Position numbers and translations under genes: made by a program
The notes under the pieces: model-generated
The model's input: the letters and a program-made list of their open reading frames with translations, nothing else
The model's database searches: none
What the model was told of the DNA's origin: nothing
Part shown: positions 5,753-24,882 of the stretch, piece after piece
How the letters are laid out: each line of letters opens with the position of its first letter
How positions within the stretch are numbered: position 1 is the first letter of the stretch
Assembly (NCBI GenBank): GCA_048940445.1
Contig: JBHLON010000031.1
Location: 1 to 38,385 of the forward strand
DNA from: Promethearchaeota archaeon
Lineage (GTDB): Archaea; Asgardarchaeota; Lokiarchaeia; Sigyniarchaeales; SOKP01
DNA: 38,385 bases
Direction of reading: 5' to 3'

Positions 5753-6292
5753 CTATTGGGACTCCTTTTTTGCTTCTCTTTCCTTTAATCTAATAGATAA
5801 TTTTAGAAACAGTTTATCTAAATCTAATTGGTATCCTATTAGTGGAGTAAGAGAAATACGGTTCTTTGTTTTATCGAATATAATATATCCTTTTTTAACT
5901 AATTTCTTGATATCTTCTCGAACAGTCTTCTTTTTTCTTATTTTATGAATTTCTTGAATAGTTGAGAAACCCGAATTTTTCAAACAACATGCAAGTATAC
6001 AAAATAAGGTTGCTGCTAAACTCGGTTGATTTCCAAAAGAGTTGGAATTTATTATATCTGAAACTTCTGGCTCAAAGGTTATAAACCAATGAGAATTTAA
6101 CGGATTAAATCTAATTTGAAATCCTATTGGTTCTATAAGCTTAGATAATTCGGTAATAAGGTTTTGAAAATGTAGCGATTTATTTTTAAAGGTTATATTC
6201 AGTGCTTCTAACACTTGTTCTTCAGTAGCTCCGATATGAGTCAAATCTTCTCTCCTACTTAATAGATGCATTAATATTGAAATTTCGTTCAT
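5753..6292 (-). CDS. KITE-family tandem winged-helix SMC subunit (ScpB / Nse1-Nse3-MAGE-like)
   Basis: 179 aa. Two winged-helix-like units (ELSKLIEPIGFQIRFN..HWFI; AATLFCIL...DIKKLVKKGYI...ISLTP). Last gene of the SMC-kleisin operon. Confidence 0.65.
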   Translation of the reverse strand: MNEISILMHLLSRREDLTHIGATEEQVLEALNITFKNKSLHFQNLITELSKLIEPIGFQIRFNPLNSHWFITFEPEVSDIINSNSFGNQPSLAATLFCILACCLKNSGFSTIQEIHKIRKKKTVREDIKKLVKKGYIIFDKTKNRISLTPLIGYQLDLDKLFLKLSIRLKEREAKKESQ

Positions 6293-6304
6293 CTTAAATT
6301 CTCC

Positions 6305-6961
6305 TCATATATATAAACTATTGGTTTCTTTTTGATATTTTATCTTACCTAATTGAAGTAGATGTAGCAAATATACAAAATCTTCAAATATTTCCATTTG
6401 ATCTTTATCTATCTCGAAAATATCTTCAAATCTGCATGGCAATTTCCCCTTGATTCTTTCAAGATAAAGAAACATTTTCTCAGTAAAGTTTTGGCGAGTA
6501 ATTTCTAATAAAAATTCGGAATTTATTTTCTGACGCTTTAAGTGCTCGACTTCAATTATTTTATTTCTTTCTTTGGAAAATTTCTTATCAGACTCTACTA
6601 AAAAATTAATGGAAATCGATTCAATAGTAAATACTCTTCTACAACAAGCATCAAATAATAAAGAAATATCTTGATCACTTGGCTTTAACTCTAAAAAATT
6701 AAAGAAGAGCTTGTCATTTTCTAGAAGTTTTAGAAAGGACTTTAATTCCTCAAATTTTTGGTTTAAAAGGAAACATGCTTCTTTATATAAGGATGAATAT
6801 TTATCAATATTTTCCATATTAAGCGAATCTTTAAGATCTTGAAAAATAGGATTAAGTTCAAAACTTAACAGACTTAATTTTCCTGATAATATTTTGCTTT
6901 TTACGTTTTCGATCTTTTGGCTTATTTGATTGTAATAATCTGTAAAATTAATCATGATCAT
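6305..6961 (-). CDS. kleisin (ScpA/Nse4-like)
   Basis: N-terminal helical ACFLLNQKFEEL and C-terminal winged helix FEDIF...FVYLLHLLQLGKIKYQ. ATGA overlap with the SMC stop codon. Confidence 0.75.
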   Translation of the reverse strand: MIMINFTDYYNQISQKIENVKSKILSGKLSLLSFELNPIFQDLKDSLNMENIDKYSSLYKEACFLLNQKFEELKSFLKLLENDKLFFNFLELKPSDQDISLLFDACCRRVFTIESISINFLVESDKKFSKERNKIIEVEHLKRQKINSEFLLEITRQNFTEKMFLYLERIKGKLPCRFEDIFEIDKDQMEIFEDFVYLLHLLQLGKIKYQKETNSLYI

Positions 6962-9900
6962 TTTTCTTTTAAAATTTTTGGTTTAAAAATTGTAGAAACC
7001 TCTTTTCTACCTATCCTGGCCACACCAATTAATTTATCAGCTAATAAATATAAGTTAGTCGATGATTTGGGTAGAAACATAAGCAATTGTACTGGATTTT
7101 TTTCTAGTGTAGCTTTTATCATTTGATAGGACGCTTCTGAATTCTTATCATCTAAAAACATGCCAGCCTCATCAAACATACAAAGTGGTGAGGGTTTAAT
7201 TTCCTGCAGTGAGAGAATTAGGCAAATTGAAATCATAGAGATTTGCCCTCCACTAAGAGCCTTAAAAGACTTTAATTGCTCTTTTGTAGTTGCTGCCTTA
7301 ATTTCTATCCCTAAATCTTCAAAAGAGCCGACTAAATTAAGGGAACAAAAGGACTTTATATTAGCTGATTCGAATTTTTGGTTAATCTTTAATTCTAAAT
7401 CATTTAAAGTTGTTCTAAATTTTTCAAAATAAGTATCTTCAAGCTTAGTTTCAGTCTTAATAGCCGATTTGATATCTTTTTCTAAGCTTTTTTGATGTTT
7501 TGCAATCTCTTTCATACTAGATATTATTTGTTCCTTTTCAATTAAAATTGAATCATCCACATCTAAATATTTTAACAATTTTTTGTCTAATCTTAAAATA
7601 TCTTCTTTAATATCAGCAATAGGGCGTATTTTAATCTCTTCATTTAATACGGCACTACTTATCTCAGAATTTATTCTCTCTAAATCTTTTTCATGAGATG
7701 ATAATTCTTGTTCGAGTGTAGTCTTCTTTAAAAATTCTTGTTCTATTTTTATTTTAATATCTATATGATCCTTTTCAATATCTGATTTTTCATGTTCAAT
7801 CTCTAGCTTTTGCTTCCTTAATTTTGAGATATCAGCTTCTCTCTCATCTATATCATCCTCAATTGATTCTAAGTTCTTATATATTTCAAAGGCCTTTTTA
7901 TCTGAGCTTTGAAATCTTTCCTTCTTCGCTTCATAATCTTGTTTTAAAATTTTTAATTTTTCTTTTTGTTGTGTGAGTTTTTCATTGACTTCCTGTATTT
8001 GTTGCATATTCATATTCAATTTCGTATCCCATTTTTTTAAATCTTCATTGTAGAAATGTAACTCATCTGGTATCTCCTCAATTCTATCGTTTAATTTAAA
8101 AATTTCTGGATCCCTCTGAGACTCTGAGCTCTGAATCTGTCTTTCTGTGTCAGATATTTCATTTTGGAGTTTGTTTATATCAGTTTCAAGATTATGCACA
8201 AGATCATAGAGATGATTCTTTTTAGAGGTTAATCTTTGCTTTTGATTAAAGTTATACAATAAATCATTAAATGCTTCCTTTTTCTCGTATAGATCTTTCT
8301 GATTTTGTTCAATTGCAGAATATTTAACTTTTAAGTCAGAAATTCTTTTATTTATAGATTCGATCTCAGATTCTAATCTAGTGAGTTCTTCTTTTAGCGT
8401 ACTAACGCTAAGTAAACCCTTTAAATGTTTTTGAAAAGGGGTTTCATAGACGTAATTATAAGAGATTAACTGTTCACCTTTTAAAGTCACACATTTTCCC
8501 CTAAAATTTTGCTTCTTATAGATCTGGATAGCTGAATAGTAGTCCTCAACAACTAAACAATTTCTTACTTTAGAGTATATTACTTTTTGAATATCTATAT
8601 CATTGTTGACTACTCTTATTAACTCTGCTAGATAACCAATAACGTTATCAGCAGAAAATTCAGGTAAAGGGCGAATATCAAGCTTTTTAGATATATAAAT
8701 ATTACAGTACGCATTATATTTGTTCTTTATTTTGTTCAATAGATTTAAGGTATCCCAATCATTAACAACGAAACTAAATAATAATTTTTCTCCCAAAACA
8801 GATTCAATTGCGTAACTTAGTTTATCATCATATTGCAAAAATTCAATTATAGGGCCCTTAACTTTGTCAGATAATTCTCTTCTTTCAATTTCTTCTTTTA
8901 ATATATTAATACTAGTTGGAAATATTACTTTTCGTTCTCTTAAGGAAACTTGTAGTTTTTTAAAATTTTCTAATAGATTGGTTCTCTTAAACTGCAAATT
9001 ACTCAATTTTTTCCCTAATTCGAAAAGGTCTTTGGAATAGTTTTTTATTCTCTCATCAATGTCAAAAAGTAAATCTGAAGTAGGATTATCGAGAAACCAT
9101 TTATTTTTTTCCAATTTGTGTTCAATATCTTTGAAACTTTGGAAAATTTCATTGATTTCTGAATTGATCTCCTTTATCTTTATTTCATTCTCTTCAATCT
9201 TATTATTATAAGCTCCTTTCTTAGAAATTAAATTACGATATTCTCTTAAAAAATCTTCATTTTGTTTTAATTTCTTCCCCAGTCTATTTTGTTCTTCTAT
9301 TAACTCATCAATCTTTTCCTTCAGAGAAAGAATCTCCTTCTGAATTAGATTTATCTCATCATCTAATTTTTTACTATGACTTTCGGTGTTTTCAAAAGCT
9401 TTTTCAGAATTTATAATTTTTAGATTTAAATTATCTAATTCCTTTTTCGCTAATATTTTTTCTTTTTCCCAAATTTGAATTTTTTCAATTAGACTTTTTT
9501 TCTTATATGTTAATTGACCTAAATCTTTTGATAATACGTTAATATTTTCTTCTATCTCATTTAGCTTTGCTTTTTTTTCTAAAAGAGCAGTCTCGTATGC
9601 TTCAGATATTTTTTTAATGTCATTGATGGATATTTGCTGATCTTTTATTTTTTCTTTCAAATAAATTATGTTCTCTTCTAACTTTTGCCTATTTGCAAAT
9701 AATAATTCATCTGTAAAACTTTCCTTTTTTTCAATAAGCTTATGTTTTTCTTCTAATCGCTGGATTTTAGGTTGTAAAAGATTCAGATTAACGTTTAGGG
9801 TATTTTGCCGGCTTAATATGGATTGAAATTCTTGATTTAAATTAAGAATTCCTCTTTTTTGAAGTAAAATTTCATCTCTAAGCCCTTTCAGTCCAATCCC

Positions 9901-10389
9901 TTCTTCTAAGAATGCACAAAGTTCGATCGGTTTTAGATTTTTAATCACATCAATTTTTCCTTGACTTACAAAAGCAAATTGATTATCAGGATTTATCCCT
10001 AGGTTAGAAATTATCTCTTGTATATAATTTGCATGAACTCTATTAAAACTATTGTCAGTAGTTCTTTCTATCTCAAAGTAAGGAGAGTGAGCCCTCACTA
10101 CAATTCTTCTTATCTTAATTATTTCTTCATTTTTTTGTATATGAACTTCAACCATCGCATGATCTTGCCCATTCCTAATAAAATCAGACCATCTTTTATA
10201 TCTTTCATCCCTTTCATTACTTCCAAGAGCAAATTTGACTGCTTGAAATATTGATGTTTTTCCTGACCAATTTGGTCCAATTATAATCACAAATTTTGAA
10301 TCCTCGAATTTTACTTCATCTCTTTGAAAACTCAAAAAATTTTCCAGAATAACTTTTTTTAAATAAATCCTTTCAGTTTCAGTAGAAAT
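6958..10389 (-). CDS. smc: SMC ATPase, Smc5/6-like (about 1143 aa, probable ATT start)
   Basis: IYLKKVILENFLSF N-terminal strand upstream of the ORF-track start, Walker A GPNWSGKT, Q-loop FVSQG, long coiled coils, hinge VKGPIIEFL...AIESVLG, signature LSGGQ, Walker B/D-loop FDEAGMFLD. Confidence 0.92.
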   Translation of the reverse strand: MSTETERIYLKKVILENFLSFQRDEVKFEDSKFVIIIGPNWSGKTSIFQAVKFALGSNERDERYKRWSDFIRNGQDHAMVEVHIQKNEEIIKIRRIVVRAHSPYFEIERTTDNSFNRVHANYIQEIISNLGINPDNQFAFVSQGKIDVIKNLKPIELCAFLEEGIGLKGLRDEILLQKRGILNLNQEFQSILSRQNTLNVNLNLLQPKIQRLEEKHKLIEKKESFTDELLFANRQKLEENIIYLKEKIKDQQISINDIKKISEAYETALLEKKAKLNEIEENINVLSKDLGQLTYKKKSLIEKIQIWEKEKILAKKELDNLNLKIINSEKAFENTESHSKKLDDEINLIQKEILSLKEKIDELIEEQNRLGKKLKQNEDFLREYRNLISKKGAYNNKIEENEIKIKEINSEINEIFQSFKDIEHKLEKNKWFLDNPTSDLLFDIDERIKNYSKDLFELGKKLSNLQFKRTNLLENFKKLQVSLRERKVIFPTSINILKEEIERRELSDKVKGPIIEFLQYDDKLSYAIESVLGEKLLFSFVVNDWDTLNLLNKIKNKYNAYCNIYISKKLDIRPLPEFSADNVIGYLAELIRVVNNDIDIQKVIYSKVRNCLVVEDYYSAIQIYKKQNFRGKCVTLKGEQLISYNYVYETPFQKHLKGLLSVSTLKEELTRLESEIESINKRISDLKVKYSAIEQNQKDLYEKKEAFNDLLYNFNQKQRLTSKKNHLYDLVHNLETDINKLQNEISDTERQIQSSESQRDPEIFKLNDRIEEIPDELHFYNEDLKKWDTKLNMNMQQIQEVNEKLTQQKEKLKILKQDYEAKKERFQSSDKKAFEIYKNLESIEDDIDEREADISKLRKQKLEIEHEKSDIEKDHIDIKIKIEQEFLKKTTLEQELSSHEKDLERINSEISSAVLNEEIKIRPIADIKEDILRLDKKLLKYLDVDDSILIEKEQIISSMKEIAKHQKSLEKDIKSAIKTETKLEDTYFEKFRTTLNDLELKINQKFESANIKSFCSLNLVGSFEDLGIEIKAATTKEQLKSFKALSGGQISMISICLILSLQEIKPSPLCMFDEAGMFLDDKNSEASYQMIKATLEKNPVQLLMFLPKSSTNLYLLADKLIGVARIGRKEVSTIFKPKILKEK

Positions 10390-10397
10390 CTTGGTAA

Positions 10398-10403
10398 CCT
10401 CCT
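10398..10403 (-). promoter_or_regulatory. Shine-Dalgarno AGGAGG, 8 nt upstream of the ATT codon opening the SMC frame
   Basis: Minus strand reads AAAAGGAGGTTACCAAG-ATT-TCT-ACT. Confidence 0.7.
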
Positions 10404-10408
10404 TTTAT

Positions 10409-11656
10409 TTATCTCCCAAAGCTCTGTCTTATGTGGTCAATTTTCTTTTTTGCTTTTTCTAAATGAATTTGGGCTCTATTTGGAGAATTATTTAAAATAA
10501 AAGGATAATTTGCTAGTAATTTTCTTTCATTCTCTTCAAGAATCTCATTTTTATTTAATTTATCAATAATTATGACTAGCTCTGTATAATTCTTAGAAGC
10601 CGCATTTTCATACAATTGGCTTAGCATAAATTCAGAAATAGGTTGATCCTGAATCTCACTCACAATTGACTGTAACTTGGTAAAAGCTAACTCTTTGTCT
10701 TTAAAATGCTTTTCTGTAGCTAGTGATTCCCGATCTAAATCCTCAAACTCATCTCGAAATCTCGGATCCTTATAATAAATTGATGGTTTGAATTCCCCTG
10801 AATCGATTAAGTTGGTAATAACATCTGTTATTTCATTAGATGTTTTATTTAGCTCAAAATTAAGAAAATGCTTAAAAATAGCTAACTTAATAAGGTTCTT
10901 AATGTCTAAAATTTCCCAATCTCTAGTATAATTGATTAGTGTACTTATATCAAAAACAATCTTTGGCTTTCCTTCGGAATAATTCCTTAAAAACACCTCT
11001 CTCTCTTTAATACCTATAGGGGGAACTCTAAGGACTAAATCAAAGATCTGGTAAACATTATATGAATTTTCCCTTATATCATTAAAATTTTCATTTAACC
11101 ACACTAAAATGCTTCCATTTTTTAAATATTCAGAATTATACCTTTTTTGAAAAGTTAAAAAGACTTTAAGCAAATTTCTCCCCTTAAATAAATTAGCTGG
11201 TAATTCGCTTTGATTTATTAATATCAATCTGTTTAATTTTACTTTCTCAAAATTTTCAGGATATGTTTTAGACTCATTCTGAACTCTTTCTTTATGTTGG
11301 GTTATGTTCAACATGTTTTGAAAGATTAAATTAAAATTGTTTAAAAATTCTGATGGTGATCTTAATATTTCAAAATAATCTAACTCTATAAAATCTAAAT
11401 AGTAGTTTTTTGATATTAATCTCAAAAAGTTAGAAATGTCTGTACCTGGGGAAATATTAACTAGAAGTAAACCATTTGGCTCAAAATATGGCTGAATTTC
11501 TGAATATTCATCACTGGTTAACAAAACCTTAAAATAATTCATAATATCATTATACTTCTCCCGAAGAAAAATATCTTCTTTCTCAACTTTAATATTCGAA
11601 GGCAGGATTATCCGATAATAACTAATCTTTTTTAGTTCATTTTCAGAGTTTTTCAT
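10409..11656 (-). CDS. degenerate (probably inactive) AAA+ ATPase-like protein
   Basis: PNGLLLVNISPGTD sits at the Walker A position without GKT. FDLVLRVPPIGIKEREVFL...DISTLINYTRDWEILDIKNLIKLA resembles the classic AAA lid (FD..I.vplP....R..IL...TeG.sgaDi..L...A). Confidence 0.6.
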   Translation of the reverse strand: MKNSENELKKISYYRIILPSNIKVEKEDIFLREKYNDIMNYFKVLLTSDEYSEIQPYFEPNGLLLVNISPGTDISNFLRLISKNYYLDFIELDYFEILRSPSEFLNNFNLIFQNMLNITQHKERVQNESKTYPENFEKVKLNRLILINQSELPANLFKGRNLLKVFLTFQKRYNSEYLKNGSILVWLNENFNDIRENSYNVYQIFDLVLRVPPIGIKEREVFLRNYSEGKPKIVFDISTLINYTRDWEILDIKNLIKLAIFKHFLNFELNKTSNEITDVITNLIDSGEFKPSIYYKDPRFRDEFEDLDRESLATEKHFKDKELAFTKLQSIVSEIQDQPISEFMLSQLYENAASKNYTELVIIIDKLNKNEILEENERKLLANYPFILNNSPNRAQIHLEKAKKKIDHIRQSFGR

Positions 11657-11773: not shown

Positions 11774-12178
11774 TTATTCAAAATGATATTCACGATAAAA
11801 ATTCATTAATTGCTCTTTAAATTCATTTTCTAAAAGACTATAATATGTAAATTTTCCTTTTTTCCACCCACGAATTAGATTGGCTTTTTCTAACTCTCTT
11901 AGATGATGAGATATTGAAGGTTGAGACTTATCCAAAATAACTTCTAATTCACATACACAACGATCTTTTTCTTTTAATGCATTAATAATAGTTAATCGTT
12001 CCCTATTTCCTAAAGCATTTAAGAATGTTAATATAGAAGATGTTTTATCATCTAACTTTAAATTTTCTCCTAATTCTTGTAAATTATTAAAAATTTTTTC
12101 ACTATCAGGACATTCTTCACAGCTACATAGCATTTCTTTGATTTCTGTTTTGCGATCGACTTTGATAAAAATCACCAA
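11774..12178 (-). CDS. arsR: ArsR/SmtB metalloregulatory repressor
   Basis: ALGNRERLTII, RCVCELEVIL-DKSQPSISHHLRELEKANLI, KKGKFTYYSL, plus extra N-terminal CSCEEC. Divergent from the acr3 operon. The exact start is uncertain (12178/12175/12166/12133). Confidence 0.92.
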   Translation of the reverse strand: MVIFIKVDRKTEIKEMLCSCEECPDSEKIFNNLQELGENLKLDDKTSSILTFLNALGNRERLTIINALKEKDRCVCELEVILDKSQPSISHHLRELEKANLIRGWKKGKFTYYSLLENEFKEQLMNFYREYHFE

Positions 12179-12244: not shown

Positions 12245-12258
12245 TCGATTCACATCGA
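12245..12258. promoter_or_regulatory. inverted repeat TCGAT-N4-ATCGA in the arsR/operon divergent promoter, candidate ArsR operator
   Basis: Perfect 5-bp inverted repeat next to a TTTTTAT TATA-like element. It is short, so a chance match is possible. Confidence 0.3.
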
Positions 12259-12323: not shown

Positions 12324-13067
12324 ATGAAAAAAAAAGTAAAGTTGACGGTTGGAGTGGTTTCTGATGGAAAATATGGGGATAGAGCCTATGAAAACATCAA
12401 AACTAAGTTTGAAACTAAATGGATACTCGTTCCAGAAATACCATCAAATGTTATGTTAGATGATTTGGTTGATCTAAACGTCCCTGAATGCGACCTTTAT
12501 ATTTCATACGTTCGTCATCCTGACATTATAATTCAACTTGTAGAACTCCAAAAGCCAATAATATTAGGAGTACTTCCTGGAATTGGTCTATATATACAAG
12601 CTAGAAAAGTCAATCCTAATGTTATTTATGCTCCTACGATGTGTTCTTTGGAACATAACACTGGCATTCCTGAGGTTGATTCCTTTACTACATATTTTGG
12701 CCGTCCTATTTATCAATTCAATTTAAATGAGAAGGGAGTAATTAACAAAATTGATATCCAACGATCATCTTTATGTGGATCTTCTAAGGCTGGAGCAGAA
12801 TTTCTCTCAAATAAAATTTTTGAAGAAAATACTCTTCAAAATTTCGCATTAAAGGTCTGTTATGAATGCCGGGCTCCACGTTTTGGTCATACATGTGATA
12901 AAGAAGTAGCTGGGCTTATTCATCTCGTTGCACTCTTTAATAGTATTTCACCTGAAGTTTTCAATAAACTTACTGATAATTTAAAAGCCTTCATTAAAGA
13001 CATAAGAAAAGAATATGAAAGAAGAACTGAAAATTCAAATATTATCTTAAAAGAGGTTGTTCGATAA
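12324..13067 (+). CDS. DUF166 family Cys-containing protein
   Basis: GKYGDRA, HPD, MCSL, FGRP, RSSLCGS, YECRA and AGLIH pattern typical of archaeal DUF166. Confidence 0.75.
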   Translation: MKKKVKLTVGVVSDGKYGDRAYENIKTKFETKWILVPEIPSNVMLDDLVDLNVPECDLYISYVRHPDIIIQLVELQKPIILGVLPGIGLYIQARKVNPNVIYAPTMCSLEHNTGIPEVDSFTTYFGRPIYQFNLNEKGVINKIDIQRSSLCGSSKAGAEFLSNKIFEENTLQNFALKVCYECRAPRFGHTCDKEVAGLIHLVALFNSISPEVFNKLTDNLKAFIKDIRKEYERRTENSNIILKEVVR

Positions 13068-13070
13068 ATT

Positions 13071-14129
13071 ATGCAAGAAGAAAAATTCGATCAAATAGAA
13101 GAAATCGTAGAAGAGAAAGGGAAAAGTATTGGGTTTTTCGAGAAGTTACTTCCATTATGGGTTGCATTATGCATTCTTATTGGGATTGTTATATCTCAGA
13201 TTATTCCTGGAATAAGTATCATAATTGATTCTTTAAAAATTGGTGAGATTTCAATACCAATCGGGATTTGTTTGTTTTTAATGATGTATCCTGCTATGTT
13301 AAATCTTCAAACATCGGAATTAAAGAAATTGGGAAAAAAACCGAAACCTATTATTTTAACTCTGATATCTAATTGGTTAATTGCCCCTTTCATAGGTCTT
13401 GCGATGGTAAAATTGTTTTTATCAGGAAATGAAGAACTTTCAGTTGCTGTCATATTACTTTCAAGTTCTCCATGTACTGCAATGGTTCTTGTATGGGGGT
13501 GGATGGCTCGAGGAAATCAAGAACAAAATGTTATTAATACTAGTTTGAATACAATAACAATAATATTTGGGTATGCTCCGATGGTTACATTATTGACTGG
13601 TATTCAGAATATTCCAATCAATTGGATACTTTTGTTATTGTCAACATTGGTTTTTATTGGACTCCCTTTATTATTGGGAATTATAACTAAAAGAATTATA
13701 ATTTCTTCTAAAGGACCAGATTGGTTCAATAAAACATATCGACCGTTAGTAGGAAAAATTTCTATTTTAGCGTTATTAACTACCTTGGTTGTCCTCTTTT
13801 CTTTGAATGGAACTGTTTTGATACAGAATCCTGATCTACTGTTATTAGTAAGTATTCCCCTTTTGGTTGGATTTGCTATTGTAGTAGGATATAACATTCT
13901 AATAACTAAATTTTTTAAACTAAAATATAAAGAGGCAGTTATAACTGTAATTATTGGATCCTCGAGTCATTTTGAAATTGCAATTGCTACTGCTATCGCA
14001 ATATACGGGGTGGGTTCAATTGCCGCATTAGGTACTACAATGGGCTTATTCTGGGAAGTACCAGTGATGTTATCAATCGTATATTTAGGCCGATATTTAA
14101 GAAAAAGAGGATTTTGGAAATCTGAATAG
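13071..14129 (+). CDS. acr3: ACR3-family arsenite efflux transporter
   Basis: FFEKLLPLWVALCI, SIPIGICLFLMMYP, SNWLIAPF, PCTAMVLVW, SSHFEIAIATAI and EVPVML motifs; about 10 TM helices. Confidence 0.95.
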   Translation: MQEEKFDQIEEIVEEKGKSIGFFEKLLPLWVALCILIGIVISQIIPGISIIIDSLKIGEISIPIGICLFLMMYPAMLNLQTSELKKLGKKPKPIILTLISNWLIAPFIGLAMVKLFLSGNEELSVAVILLSSSPCTAMVLVWGWMARGNQEQNVINTSLNTITIIFGYAPMVTLLTGIQNIPINWILLLLSTLVFIGLPLLLGIITKRIIISSKGPDWFNKTYRPLVGKISILALLTTLVVLFSLNGTVLIQNPDLLLLVSIPLLVGFAIVVGYNILITKFFKLKYKEAVITVIIGSSSHFEIAIATAIAIYGVGSIAALGTTMGLFWEVPVMLSIVYLGRYLRKRGFWKSE

Positions 14130-14171: not shown

Positions 14172-15836
14172 ATGGCTGTTGTATATATGCGTAAATTGGA
14201 ACAAGAACCTGAAAGTTATGATTCAAAATTTACAATTCTTACAAAGGGAGTAAATATTGAAGTTCAAAATTGGGTTCTTGATCATATAAATACTGTAGAA
14301 ACAGTTTTAGAGATTGGATGTGGTACTGGTGCACTTGCCTCTAAAATAGCATTAAAGGGTAACGATGTTGTTGCGATTGATAAAGATTTTAAGATGATTA
14401 CGTATGCTATGCAGAATTATCCTCAAGAAGAAAATTTAAAACTCAAATATCAAATTGGATCTTTTTCAGATATGCCCATTGAAGATTCCTCTAAAGATGT
14501 AGTTGTGAGTACTTTTATGTTATCAGAATTGCGTCCATTTGAACAACAAATTTTTCTTCGAAATGTATGGAAAGTACTGAAACCAGAAGGGCGTTTAATT
14601 ATTGGAGCTGAATTTTTACCTTCAGGATTTTGGAGACTAATATTTAATATTAAAAGATGGTGGTATAAGAAAAAAATTAGAAGACTTCGATTGAAAAGCA
14701 CTTTCCGCGTTAAATGGTTCTTTAATTATTTACAGCAAATAGGATTTAAATTTAATACTCAAAAAAAGTGGAAACATGGGTCCATCCAAGCACTGGTACT
14801 ACAAAAGATAAATATCAATCAGAATAATGAACCCGGCTATTATCGCCCTAAACCAAAAAAATTCAAAGGAATTCAGTCTCAATTACGGATTTTTCGATGT
14901 ATCTTTACTGGTCAAGTTGATCATGTTCCTATTGAACCTGGAATATATGAATCTGGTACTCCTGATGAAAATTCCCCGATTATCGTAACTGCAAATTATG
15001 ACTATACCTACATTAAAGTAATGCGAGACTTGAAAAGGATCAATGCATGGGTATTATGTGTAGATTCTGATGGAATTAATGTGTGGTGTGCAGCTCGCGG
15101 AAATAATTTCGGAAATTCCCAAATCCTTGAGGCGGTAGGAGCATCTGGAATTCAGTATATTTCTAATAAAAAGACTTTATTGCTTCCTCAACTTTCTGCA
15201 GGGGGAGTCGCTATTCCAGAATTACCAATAAATTCTGATAAATTCCCATTTAAAGTTAAATATGGTCCTGTGTGGTCCAAATTTATCCCCGATTATTTAA
15301 AAGAAAAACCCTCTAAGAAATCAGATAAAATCAAGCTTGCTAAATTTACCACATCTCAACGTATCCGTGCTGGAATTACTCATACTACATTTCTCTTTCG
15401 AAAAGTGTTTCTTTTACCCATTGTTGTTTTACTAATACTATTTTTGGGCTTAACAATCTTTACAAATTTTGATAAGTTATGGTGGATTGGCGAAGTTTGC
15501 CTTTGGATAGTTCTCACTAATGTAATTCTATTTTCCTTGTTTCCTCTTTCAAAATTTACTCAGAGGTTTATAATTAAGGGAATTTTCTATGGATTTATTA
15601 ATATTGTCATTCTAGGTGCACTAACATGGTGGCTACATAATTCAATCTTTTATACGTTAATTAATCTGGGATTTTTCTTCTGGATTGCTTTCTTTTCAAC
15701 AATGTCTTTTAGCGGTTACACGATGGCAACAAGTCCACGAAAAATTGAAAATGAATATCCCCTGTTTAATATTTTAAATAAAATATTTTTAGTAATAAGT
15801 TTAATTTCACTAACAATTGGAGTCATATTTGTTTAA
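14172..15836 (+). CDS. fusion: class I SAM methyltransferase + HgcA-like (CdhD-family) corrinoid-binding domain + TM domain
   Basis: LEIGCGTG and VLKPEGRL methyltransferase motifs. EPGIY..G.PDENSPIIVTANY, DSDGINVWCAARG (cap-helix Cys306), LLLPQLSAGGV and YGPV motifs. 4-5 TM helices ending FSGYTMATS. Confidence 0.88.
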   Translation: MAVVYMRKLEQEPESYDSKFTILTKGVNIEVQNWVLDHINTVETVLEIGCGTGALASKIALKGNDVVAIDKDFKMITYAMQNYPQEENLKLKYQIGSFSDMPIEDSSKDVVVSTFMLSELRPFEQQIFLRNVWKVLKPEGRLIIGAEFLPSGFWRLIFNIKRWWYKKKIRRLRLKSTFRVKWFFNYLQQIGFKFNTQKKWKHGSIQALVLQKININQNNEPGYYRPKPKKFKGIQSQLRIFRCIFTGQVDHVPIEPGIYESGTPDENSPIIVTANYDYTYIKVMRDLKRINAWVLCVDSDGINVWCAARGNNFGNSQILEAVGASGIQYISNKKTLLLPQLSAGGVAIPELPINSDKFPFKVKYGPVWSKFIPDYLKEKPSKKSDKIKLAKFTTSQRIRAGITHTTFLFRKVFLLPIVVLLILFLGLTIFTNFDKLWWIGEVCLWIVLTNVILFSLFPLSKFTQRFIIKGIFYGFINIVILGALTWWLHNSIFYTLINLGFFFWIAFFSTMSFSGYTMATSPRKIENEYPLFNILNKIFLVISLISLTIGVIFV

Positions 15837-15872
15837 ATAATATAAAAAATTAATAAAATTGAAGATTAGGAG

Positions 15873-16187
15873 GTGTTATATATAACAGAAATAGATTTTA
15901 AATCATTAAATATAACAGAAATCGTAAAGGATTTGCGTATCTTTATCAATAAAGATCTCTGTAATGGTTGTGGGTTGTGCGGAGAGATTTGTCCTTTTGG
16001 ATTACCAAAACCAATTGAAGATGGAAAGTATGAAATATCAAATGCTAATCTCTGTACAGAATGTAGTGCGTGTAAAAGAAATTGCCCCACAAAGGCTATT
16101 ATCATGCAAGAACAACCTGGATGTGGATGTTTATGGAATGTTAGAAGTAGAGTAAAAAATTCTAATCAATCTTGTAATTGTTCTTAA
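15873..16187 (+). CDS. 2x[4Fe-4S] ferredoxin, HgcB-like
   Basis: CNGCGLCGEICP and CTECSACKRNCP, then PGCGC and C-terminal CNC. Directly downstream of the hgcA-like gene. The true start may be ATA at 15882. Confidence 0.88.
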   Translation: MLYITEIDFKSLNITEIVKDLRIFINKDLCNGCGLCGEICPFGLPKPIEDGKYEISNANLCTECSACKRNCPTKAIIMQEQPGCGCLWNVRSRVKNSNQSCNCS

Positions 16188-16205: not shown

Positions 16206-16478
16206 ATGGAAAAAAATAATAAGTTAAACGTGGATATTTATGTGCCTCTAGATAGCTGTGCTTGCGAATGGGACAAGTTTATGAATCGTGTATTCGTAGT
16301 CTTGACACCCTATATTAAGCATATTAATTACAATACAAAAAATCTTAATTCTGAAGAAGCTCGAAGCCTAAATTTACATGGAAACTCTATTGTTATAGAA
16401 AATGAAAAAAAGTATACGGCTGTATTTTCATTAGAAAGAGAATTGCCTGCTCTGCTTAAAGAAAAAGGTTTGATTTAA
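16206..16478 (+). CDS. small thioredoxin-fold-like protein with CxC motif (ArsD-like metallochaperone candidate)
   Basis: VDIYVPLDSCACEW near the N-terminus of a 90-aa ORF within the operon. Fold assignment is by eye. Confidence 0.55.
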   Translation: MEKNNKLNVDIYVPLDSCACEWDKFMNRVFVVLTPYIKHINYNTKNLNSEEARSLNLHGNSIVIENEKKYTAVFSLERELPALLKEKGLI

Positions 16479-16515: not shown

Positions 16516-16863
16516 GTGGAATTTGAAATTAGTATTCCAATTAAAGGATTACAACGGGGTAAAAAATATTCTCTTGAAATCGAAGATAATACTACATTTA
16601 TAGAAGCTTTAGCATTGGTTGATAAAATTGAGATGGGAGATTCCATTAATTCGATATTTCCATTGTATGATAGTCACATTCATAGCTACCTTCAATTATT
16701 TGTAAATATAGATGAGGGTTCATTATATGGTGATGTTGGAATATTTGCATATGCACCTGATGATAATGGAGCTATGCGTAAATTTAACCCAATCAGAAAT
16801 AATATAGAATTCAACATATATCCTGACAGTTTTATTCAATTACAACCGGATGTAGGATGTTGA
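16516..16863 (+). CDS. ubiquitin/MoaD-like beta-grasp protein ending in Gly-Cys
   Basis: Strand-strand-helix opening (EFEISIP..KYSLEIEDNTTFIEALALVD) and C-terminal YPDSFIQLQPDVGC, paralleling the MoaD ending l.dgD.v.i.Ppv.GG. Confidence 0.55.
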   Translation: MEFEISIPIKGLQRGKKYSLEIEDNTTFIEALALVDKIEMGDSINSIFPLYDSHIHSYLQLFVNIDEGSLYGDVGIFAYAPDDNGAMRKFNPIRNNIEFNIYPDSFIQLQPDVGC

Positions 16864-23379: not shown

Positions 23380-24882
23380 TTGTCTGCTCCGTTAGAAACA
23401 CTATTAAGAGATTCTCGAATTGATTTAGTATTATCTAGAATTGAAAAAGATCCCCTAGTAATCAAGGAAGTGATTGAAAATCTAGAAAGTGAAATTCGAT
23501 CAGTTAAATTCAACGCAATATTTGTTCTAGGAGAATTGGGAGAGAAATCTATAAATGCTGTTCCAGAATTAATGAGTTGTCTCTTAGATAATGATTGGAG
23601 TATTTGTCGTGAAGCTGCTCGAACTTTAGGGAAGATTGGAAGCAATGTAAAGGATGCTGTACCATATCTTTCGAGCTTATTAAAGAGTGAATATGACTCT
23701 ATCCGTAAAGAAGCTGCTATAGCTTTAGGTAAGATCAAAAATCCTACGCCTGAATCATTAAAAAGCCTAAATGAAGCATTGAAGGATAAGAATGAAGAAG
23801 TTCGAACAGAAGTAGTAAATGCTCTTAGTAATATTGGTCCTGAAGCAAGTGATTCAATCCCTTATTTGATGAAAAGCTTAAAAGACATAAGTTGGGCAGT
23901 TAGAACTGCTTCAGCTCAGGCTATAAAACAAATTGGTAAAGGATCTGTTAAAGCTCTGCCAAGTTTGCTCTCAACGCTTGATGATAAAGATTGGAGAGTA
24001 AGATATAGAATTGTTACCACATTAGCTGATTTGGGAGAAGCAGCGATACCAAGTTTATTAGATATGCTAAAACATAAAAATCGGATTATAAGAAAGGAGG
24101 CTATTGAAACGCTAGGAGAGATAAAACAATCTGATCCTAAAGTTATTGAGAATTTGTATTCTTTATTAAGAGACCAAAATGAAATAATCCGCGGTAAGGC
24201 TGCTGATGCCCTTCGTTCGATTGGAAGAGATTCAATACCTCTACTAATTAAGTCTTTCAATGAAAAACTGAAATTTTCATTCAGTTGGTTATTATATTGG
24301 ATACTACTTTTTTTAATGATTCCATATATGTTATTTTTATCTTCAGATTTTTTTATAATCTTCTTATTCGCTATATCTCTAATAATACCTCTAATTACTA
24401 CCCCCTATAGTATAATTAAATATTTTATAACTGACAACAGACGTAAAATAATTATTATTTCCTCAATTGGAGGCATCGGGACAGATGCTAAAGAAGCTAT
24501 CCCGTTTATGATTGAAATAATGCAAAACGATAAAAAGCCCTTACGAGTTGAGGCAGCAAGAGCGTTAGGTAGTATTGGAACTAGTTCAGAGGGTGCATTA
24601 CATGCTCTTCAACAAGCTTTAAAAGATAAATCGGCAATCGTTCGTCGAGAGGCGGCATTATCTATAGGTAAAATGGGCAAATTTGCTGAAAAGGCTATTC
24701 CATCATTGATGAATGCTTTAAATGATAAAAATCCTGATGTTAGATGGAGGTCAACTGAAGCATTAGCAAGAATTGGCGTAACTACACCAGAGATTATATC
24801 AAGCTTGAAAGCTCTTATACATGATGAATGTGATTATGTTTGTGAATCTGCGATTACTGCTTTGGATAGCTTAGAACAGTAA
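23380..24882 (+). CDS. HEAT-repeat (PBS-lyase-like) protein with an internal hydrophobic insertion
   Basis: Many repeats of the form AIPxLxxxLxDxxxxVRxxAAxALGxIG. Hydrophobic segment at about residues 298-348. Confidence 0.9.
   Translation: MSAPLETLLRDSRIDLVLSRIEKDPLVIKEVIENLESEIRSVKFNAIFVLGELGEKSINAVPELMSCLLDNDWSICREAARTLGKIGSNVKDAVPYLSSLLKSEYDSIRKEAAIALGKIKNPTPESLKSLNEALKDKNEEVRTEVVNALSNIGPEASDSIPYLMKSLKDISWAVRTASAQAIKQIGKGSVKALPSLLSTLDDKDWRVRYRIVTTLADLGEAAIPSLLDMLKHKNRIIRKEAIETLGEIKQSDPKVIENLYSLLRDQNEIIRGKAADALRSIGRDSIPLLIKSFNEKLKFSFSWLLYWILLFLMIPYMLFLSSDFFIIFLFAISLIIPLITTPYSIIKYFITDNRRKIIIISSIGGIGTDAKEAIPFMIEIMQNDKKPLRVEAARALGSIGTSSEGALHALQQALKDKSAIVRREAALSIGKMGKFAEKAIPSLMNALNDKNPDVRWRSTEALARIGVTTPEIISSLKALIHDECDYVCESAITALDSLEQ

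Follow-up and report, generated by a model that had tools for sequence, protein, structure and literature searches.

What might a corrinoid protein resembling the mercury-methylating HgcA do in an arsenic operon, and with a methyltransferase domain of its own? The locus that raises this question lies on contig JBHLON010000031.1 of a Promethearchaeota archaeon (GCA_048940445.1), which was analysed over positions 1-38,385 of the forward strand (the window, meaning this whole stretch of DNA of 38,385 nucleotides). Here a single uninterrupted open reading frame (ORF) of 554 amino acids (14172..15836, + strand) joins a CpaM-like class I S-adenosylmethionine (SAM) methyltransferase to an HgcA-like corrinoid and membrane protein (the CpaM-HgcA-like fusion, below simply the fusion), and an HgcB-like ferredoxin gene follows. 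The arsR/acr3 operon just 5' of the fusion, overlooked in the initial annotation, is the main functional clue. The reading which we favour, and which in our estimate has an even chance of being right, is that of a membrane-anchored, SAM-driven, Cys-on cobalamin methyltransferase of the ars operon that would methylate thiol-bound As(III) or Sb(III). What is added here is the swap of the fusion for ArsM in related genomes, the placement in trees and the paralog controls.

The fusion is composed of the methyltransferase domain (aa 3-211, 14178..14804), an HgcA/CdhE-type corrinoid-binding domain (about aa 235-390, 14874..15341) and five predicted transmembrane (TM) helices (15351..15833) colinear with the HgcA membrane domain, all on the + strand. 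The sequence GINVWCAARG begins at aa 301, and its NVWCAARG portion forms the cap helix (aa 303-310, 15078..15101, + strand) with Cys306 (codon 15087-15089), the equivalent of HgcA Cys93. This three-part architecture, proposed in the initial annotation from the sequence, is borne out by the ORF itself, by Pfam (Methyltransf_11/25 at aa 45-144, CdhD at aa 238-343), by NCBIfam and by an AlphaFold2 model (predicted local distance difference test, pLDDT, 79; predicted template modelling score 0.72) in which a methyltransferase of Rossmann fold is followed by an alpha/beta corrinoid domain and, at the C-terminus, by five long helices. Confidence is low at the cap helix, and the best Foldseek match of the model is 9a0b_A, a computational HgcA model. 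The corrinoid domain is homologous to the CdhE structures PDB 2h9a and 4c1n; the fusion is the sole HgcA-like gene of the source genome, and a separate CdhE is encoded on contig C21.

For the N-terminus, CpaM is the top scorer among all methyltransferase models, as the initial annotation had anticipated; NF043040 matches over its entire length with 144.3 bits, under its cut-off of 180. Scores under the cut-off were also obtained with the HgcA model NF040863 (aa 253-544, 161.1 bits, cut-off 275) and with the HgcAB-like model NF043039 (165.7 bits, cut-off 285). The ArsM model PRK11873 gives 45.1 bits, far under its cut-off of 263; the methyltransferase domain has one Cys in total, the As-binding cysteines of ArsM are absent and the generic core alone aligns, which rules the domain out as an ArsM. 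NVWCAARG is found in 119 of 120 fusion homologs and W305 and C306 are invariant across 69 sequences, aligning to canonical HgcA. The strict motif N(V/I)WCA(A/G)GK is not matched, and the looser N(V/I)WCA(A/G) screen of PMC12484752 is passed. Judged by cut-off and motif, and by clade in the best trees, the fusion and its ferredoxin are to be placed outside HgcA, HgcB, CpaM and HgcAB-like.

The fusion is real and widespread. At least 120 homologs, among the matches listed, align over 94-100% of the query with identities of 62-92%, those that are named being labelled Promethearchaeota or other Asgard groups, and Logan contigs from two other runs span the domain junction without differences (X5, 14564-15252; X6, from a different study, 14565-14919). 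Because of these near-full-length homologs and bridging contigs an assembly artefact as the origin of the fusion is ruled out. A strong match is present in about 98 of the 135 genomes of the source's Promethearchaeia family. Absence from reads and related genomes, which the initial annotation named as a refuting outcome, is not what was found. Two distant Asgard families, f31 (Thorarchaeia) and f16, have related fusions as well. Both cultured Asgard archaea, P. syntrophicum MK-D1 (QEE17993) and Ca. L. ossiferum (UYP44054), carry it in the gene order arsR, acr3, fusion, ferredoxin; their copies score 169.9 and 163.5 bits with the HgcA model (cut-off 275) and are labelled at NCBI simply as methyltransferases. 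Canonical HgcA above the cut-off was found in 1 of 400 Asgard genomes. A survey by Zhang et al. (ISME J, 2023) is said to report hgcA-like genes in many Asgard genomes. No paper naming CpaM together with HgcA, or describing a CpaM-HgcA fusion, was found in a search in which the key Asgard hgcA survey was not covered. Lin et al. mention Asgard sequences for the fused clade only (PMC10083202). No RNA holders of the feature are listed. One contig labelled Nanopelagicaceae (L210) bears a Promethearchaeia-type operon and is probably mis-binned.

The phylogeny against HgcA, fused HgcAB and CdhE proposed in the initial annotation was calculated on sequences excluding methanogens, Nitrospina and Pyrococcus. 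In the tree of corrinoid and TM domains the fusions of Promethearchaeia and Thorarchaeia are sister to canonical HgcA (support 99/95). The corrinoid-only tree with CdhE as outgroup gives the same grouping (95/84), as it does when an independent canonical sample replaces the query-biased rows (95/87). The canonical rows form a 100% clade of their own with the fusion family outside, as sister, and the divergent clade supposed at the outset is seen in all three trees, with 95-99% bootstrap for the sister position. In approximately unbiased (AU) tests neither a basal canonical HgcA (p 0.3) nor a grouping of the fusions with the HgcAB-like proteins (p 0.065) is rejected. The best trees suggest, with these alternatives left standing, that the fusion family is sister to canonical HgcA, and they favour a loss of CpaM by canonical HgcA, for which the AU result on the basal canonical clade has to be kept in mind.

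The change from GK to RG in the cap-helix motif had been read as a sign of a substrate other than Hg. As a clade or substrate marker RG is ruled out: NVWCAARG is also carried by fused HgcAB-like proteins from Bathyarchaeia, Dehalococcoidales and Desulfobacteraceae, the complex model puts R309 at the contact with the ferredoxin, and the residues documented as essential for Hg methylation are kept. Of the suggestion that the substrate may not be Hg, the motif supports nothing, and what speaks for it is the operon context, which points to arsenic.

The ferredoxin (15873..16187, + strand, 104 aa) adjoins the fusion on its 3' side and has the residues first described for it, i.e. two CxxCxxCxxxC motifs (C30/33/36/40 and C61/64/67/71), GCGC at 83-86 and a terminal CNC. 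C86 aligns with the Cys of GVGC and is the equivalent of HgcB Cys73, C84 is an additional Cys, and C101 and C103 form the tail. HgcB is its best model (NF040864, 53.6 bits, under the cut-off of 99). The GxGC Cys is present in the ferredoxin of 58 of 59 fusion loci and the Cys tail in all 59, in agreement with the tree grouping; GxGC is found in none of 37 ferredoxins of the paralogous CpaM modules, where the cysteines counted close to the ends are cluster ligands and not a tail. Hg methylation depends on HgcB Cys73 together with one or more of the tail cysteines (PMC7305189). A model of the fusion-ferredoxin complex scores 0.72 versus 0.01 for the best control and passes a mark reached by 58 of 80 solved pairs and 2 of 110 mismatched pairs, with a contact agreement between runs of at least 86% and a partner pLDDT of at least 67. 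The modelled contacts, fusion 343-349 with ferredoxin 66-70 plus R309, are those of the published HgcAB model, and since they repeat it the pass may owe to likeness to that model; the ferredoxin may, on this model, dock on the corrinoid and TM domains. The start of the ferredoxin is ambiguous (15869-15884), as the annotated GTG is itself part of the ribosome-binding motif GGAGGTG. Six bases past this motif the window has ATA (15882), and it is at this position that relatives start, with ATG or TTG.

Four arrangements of CpaM, HgcA-like protein and ferredoxin are found: CpaM next to a fused A-B, all three fused, each encoded separately, and CpaM-A with a separate B as in the source genome. CpaM is fused to or adjoins an HgcA-like gene in every non-canonical lineage sampled (nearly every locus read), and no CpaM was found near canonical hgcA at 29 loci of a Desulfobacterota sample. 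The methyltransferase and corrinoid trees yield the same groups. The domain of the fusion carries G49-x-G51-x-G53, D70 and S118-E119, and a comparison with 55 CpaM-like proteins shows M6, E10, Y16, GxGxG, D70, M75 and S118-E119 to be common to all arrangements. Because of this linkage, the matching clades and the shared residues, the data fit CpaM as a dedicated SAM-to-cobalamin loader of its corrinoid protein. By analogy, the fusion as a whole would act like an HgcAB with a built-in SAM module.

The gene order in the window is arsR (divergent), DUF166, acr3, fusion, ferredoxin, a 90-aa CxC protein and a 115-aa protein. In Promethearchaeia one or more of arsR, acr3, arsC and arsM lie within 5 kb of the fusion at 28 of 41 loci, and acr3, arsC or arsM at 22 of 41, compared with 1 of 41 for the paralogs. 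In the f31 loci arsR is directly upstream in 7 of 12. Paralogous CpaM modules have an ars context in 1 of 31 and 0 of 10 cases (two sets, partly from the same genomes as the fusion), and canonical hgcA in 1 of 29 of the Desulfobacterota sample, where 4 of 33 loci had no ORF calls and the BLAST-based neighbour labels may under-count distant ArsR. Most fusion loci without ArsR carry a Cys-rich MarR (eight loci), with which the ars-context count rises to 35 of 41. This MarR family also stands beside arsM in 11 of 20 arsM loci, which makes it a candidate arsenic-sensing MarR of Promethearchaeia; in the source genome it is found upstream of arsM (C4:39139-40608). As the loci are kin sharing one ancestral operon, these counts show retention and not independent events.

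A further hint comes from the place that follows acr3 and precedes the 115-aa gene. In two genomes (G169 and G168; order arsR, acr3, X, 115-aa protein) X is a true ArsM fused to the 90-aa CxC protein, scoring 357 and 351 bits (cut-off 263), and the fusion was not found in either, G168 being 99% complete. A third genome of the same genus (G170) carries both, arsM in tandem with the fusion (L044). These gene orders are most simply read as a gain of arsM by the operon, after which the then redundant corrinoid pair would have been lost. An ArsM fused to the 90-aa CxC protein takes the slot of fusion and ferredoxin at L333:2550-3671 and L337:2744-3856 (-). The same ArsM-CxC ORF is present in G165 and G167, and in G171 the arsM and CxC genes are adjacent and unfused; G167 was not counted as a swap because its fusion fragment sits at a contig end. 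That ArsM and the fusion exclude each other across genomes was also considered, and the counts show no such pattern.

The favoured arsenic methylation would proceed in five steps. ArsR, judging from its family and CVC motif, would release the operon upon binding As(III). The ferredoxin would dock as modelled and, by the chemistry of HgcAB, reduce cobalamin to Co(I). The CpaM domain, with its SAM-binding motifs, would bind SAM and methylate Co(I) to methyl-Co(III), Cys306 presumably being the lower ligand. The Cys tail of the ferredoxin together with C84/C86 would present the thiol-bound metalloid for methylation, as in the model for HgcB Cys73/94/95, perhaps supplied by the 90-aa CxC protein. 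Acr3 would export unmethylated As(III). Since cysteines of the ArsM type are missing from the methyltransferase domain, a methyl group bound for arsenic would have to travel by way of methylcobalamin, a route known in methanogens (PMC13262295). Methylation of Hg(II) would be a possible side activity.

Several observations weigh against this reading. The ars-context loci are not independent, and the ArsM swap may represent one or two deletion events, with acr3 broken in G168. The source genome and about a third of the fusion-bearing relatives carry an ArsM of their own, and by hand count ArsM is not clearly commoner without the fusion (about 15 of 36) than with it (34 of 99). Of the f16 fusions, 0 of 7 have an ars context. 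The operon partner is Acr3 and not the methylarsenite exporter ArsP. Neither mono- nor dimethylarsenic was formed by P. mercurii ND132, a strain with canonical hgcAB that lacks ArsM, and deletion of its hgcAB left As(III) resistance unchanged (bioRxiv 2022.10.17.512643). Finally, canonical HgcAB in purified form needs no methyltransferase domain to methylate its cob(I)alamin with SAM (PMC11588087). It is able to load its Co unaided. The built-in loader seen in the initial annotation agrees with the CpaM-corrinoid linkage and matching clades; that HgcA lacks a loader and is in need of one is not supported. The stronger version of the favoured reading, by which the fusion would be a dedicated cobalamin-dependent arsenic methyltransferase keeping the ancestral CpaM, HgcA and Cys-tailed HgcB, and canonical mercury methylases would have derived from it by loss of CpaM, is in our view rather unlikely.

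The alternative which survives best, improbable as we take it to be, is that of a functional mercury methylase, an Asgard counterpart of HgcAB with the ars context an unexplained co-regulation and no arsenic turnover. The sister position to canonical HgcA in the three trees is what it would predict, as is the retention of the cap-helix Cys, the TM domain, the Cys73 equivalent and the tail cysteines, all needed for Hg methylation (PMC7305189), and some canonical hgcAB loci likewise adjoin arsR, acr3 or arsC, in our data and in the literature (PMC7438021). It has to contend with scores under the HgcA and HgcB cut-offs, a motif without GK, and the unrejected grouping with fused HgcAB-like proteins (AU p 0.065), which include one that fails to methylate Hg (PMC10083202). 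Moreover, as Hg methylation has no known benefit in the literature, it would explain neither the near-core retention nor the ArsM swap. Hg methylation at least as a side activity we rate only a little short of an even chance.

An arsenic chemistry other than forward methylation appears unlikely. The corrinoid would then demethylate methylarsenicals or aid reduction or thiolation, and the SAM domain would only reactivate oxidised cobalamin, as the SAM domain of methionine synthase does. Demethylation would yield inorganic As(III), the cargo of Acr3; in genus g12 the neighbours of the fusion include flavodoxin-like and flavin-reductase-like genes; and ND132 made a probable thioarsenical and was less resistant to As(V) after hgcAB deletion (bioRxiv 2022.10.17.512643). 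However, no conserved methyl-accepting partner is found nearby, the SAM-to-Co(I) transfer is irreversible in HgcAB, and the replacement by ArsM points to the forward direction. Less probable still is a thiol, sulfide, selenide or other small molecule as acceptor, the arsenic link being a lineage-specific regulatory recruitment. Paralogous CpaM modules beside heterodisulfide-reductase-like, TetR or F420-related genes and outside ars operons, and the f16 fusions without ars context, would suit it, but the paralogs lack the GxGC Cys and Cys tail, both kept in the fusion clade, whose operon and regulators are of arsenic type. That the methyltransferase domain serves a substrate of its own and the fusion merely co-localises two activities is very improbable: canonical HgcA, which needs no such domain, is sporadically fused to many unrelated neighbours, but at almost all non-canonical loci read CpaM adjoins its partner or is fused to it; there are four such patterns, the clades match, residues are invariant across the family, and because the ArsM cysteines are absent the domain cannot work like ArsM.

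Compared with known systems, the fusion and its ferredoxin share with canonical HgcA and HgcB the cap-helix NVWC, the five colinear TM helices, a 2x[4Fe-4S] ferredoxin that is encoded separately downstream and has the Cys73 equivalent and tail, the modelled interface and, in some canonical loci, the ars context. They differ from them by the N-terminal CpaM, AARG in place of AAGK and, in the ferredoxin, GCGC in place of GVGC; the fusion is 25-32% identical to canonical HgcA. The system of CpaM (NF043040) and HgcAB-like (NF043039) has the same three modules, and many Asgard genomes carry that paralog too. However, it joins A to B with a separate methyltransferase, whereas the fusion joins methyltransferase to A with a separate B; the two form separate clades, and the paralog ferredoxin has neither GxGC nor Cys tail. 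With ArsM (PRK11873) there are in common the class I SAM fold and, in related genomes, the operon slot and 90-aa partner; the generic SAM core alone aligns (32% over 106 aa). The corrinoid iron-sulfur protein's large subunit, CdhE/AcsC, has a homologous corrinoid-binding domain, but no cap-helix Cys or TM domain, and takes its methyl group from methyl-pterin carriers.

The remaining genes of the operon are as follows. The ArsR/SmtB repressor (11774..12178, - strand), with CVC in helix 3 and an N-terminal CxCxxC, is the only ArsR detected in the source genome with this query. The DUF166 protein (12324..13067, + strand) opens the operon, and the Acr3 arsenite efflux transporter (13071..14129, + strand; 276.9 bits versus a cut-off of 282.8) ends 42 bp 5' of the fusion. 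An inverted repeat TCGAT-N4-ATCGA (12245..12258) between arsR and the operon is a candidate operator. Such a site is seen in just 4 of 25 loci and not beside the arsM of the source genome, so that a conserved operator was rejected and the palindrome remains a weak lead. A scan for promoters and terminators, of a kind ill-suited to archaea, was at chance level. The 90-aa CxC protein (16206..16478, + strand), fused to ArsM in related genomes, gives a weak thioredoxin-fold lead (ArsD/ArsE-like) and a poor single-sequence fold (pLDDT 56). The 115-aa protein (16516..16863, + strand) is family-less, ends in GC and remains in the operon when ArsM replaces the fusion; its terminal GC is conserved, there are weak ubiquitin-like (beta-grasp) leads and a second copy lies on contig C44. 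Atlas matches for both small proteins are leads only. A MerB search gave no match anywhere and is uninformative.

Upstream in the window (5753-11656, - strand) lies a block made up of an SMC gene (1125 aa), a gene resembling ScpB and two genes without assignment (415 and 218 aa); at 15 of 41 loci this block is found flanking the ars operon. Downstream (23380-24882), a 500-aa HEAT-repeat protein follows a branched-chain-type ABC transporter cluster. At two loci (L049, L074) opposite-strand genes of 850 and 200 aa are inserted between acr3 and the fusion.

The wider family includes other forms. CpaM-HgcA-HgcB-like triple fusions of 590-655 aa (L116-L120, L144, L146, L168) are found in Asgard archaea and one Desulfobacteraceae genome. 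A three-gene paralog of Thorarchaeia (L132-L141), with CpaM, an HgcA-like protein (NVWCGSRGG) and a short tail-less ferredoxin beside large heterodisulfide-reductase-like genes, is possibly a thiol methylation system. A bacterial CpaM-HgcA-like fusion with a separate ferredoxin without Cys tail (L284:8001-9927, L286:4237-6153), located between TetR and an F420H2-quinone reductase-like gene, represents an independent origin of the same arrangement. In metagenomes a canonical-type HgcA (460 bits, NVWCAAGE) is fused to a true ArsM (341 bits) and followed by hgcB (P0254, a 19-member cluster, P0258 and L287:3-1652), so that an arsenic and a mercury methylase are joined directly. Canonical HgcA is also fused to ArsP (P0278, P0289-P0291, P0295), ArsC-type LMWPc (P0252, P0299), thioredoxin_3 (P0264-P0266), an aquaporin-family protein (P0281) or ArsR (P0302), and arsenic-operon domains (ArsM, ArsP, ArsC, Trx-like, ArsR) are thus carried by many long canonical HgcA forms.

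For surveys of methylmercury formation it matters that loose motif screens count the fusion genes as hgcA and strict ones do not; in Promethearchaeia about three quarters of the genomes have the fusion, and canonical hgcA is nearly absent from Asgard archaea. The fusion family is the closest relative of canonical HgcA found here, with the Hg-methylation residues kept and a tie to the arsenic operon far tighter than that of the paralogs. The question is directly testable, because the fusion exists in two cultured Asgard archaea (QEE17993, UYP44054). As to the native function of HgcAB, arsenic is the leading, unproven suspect, and an ancestral arsenic methyltransferase would, if true, answer what HgcAB evolved for.

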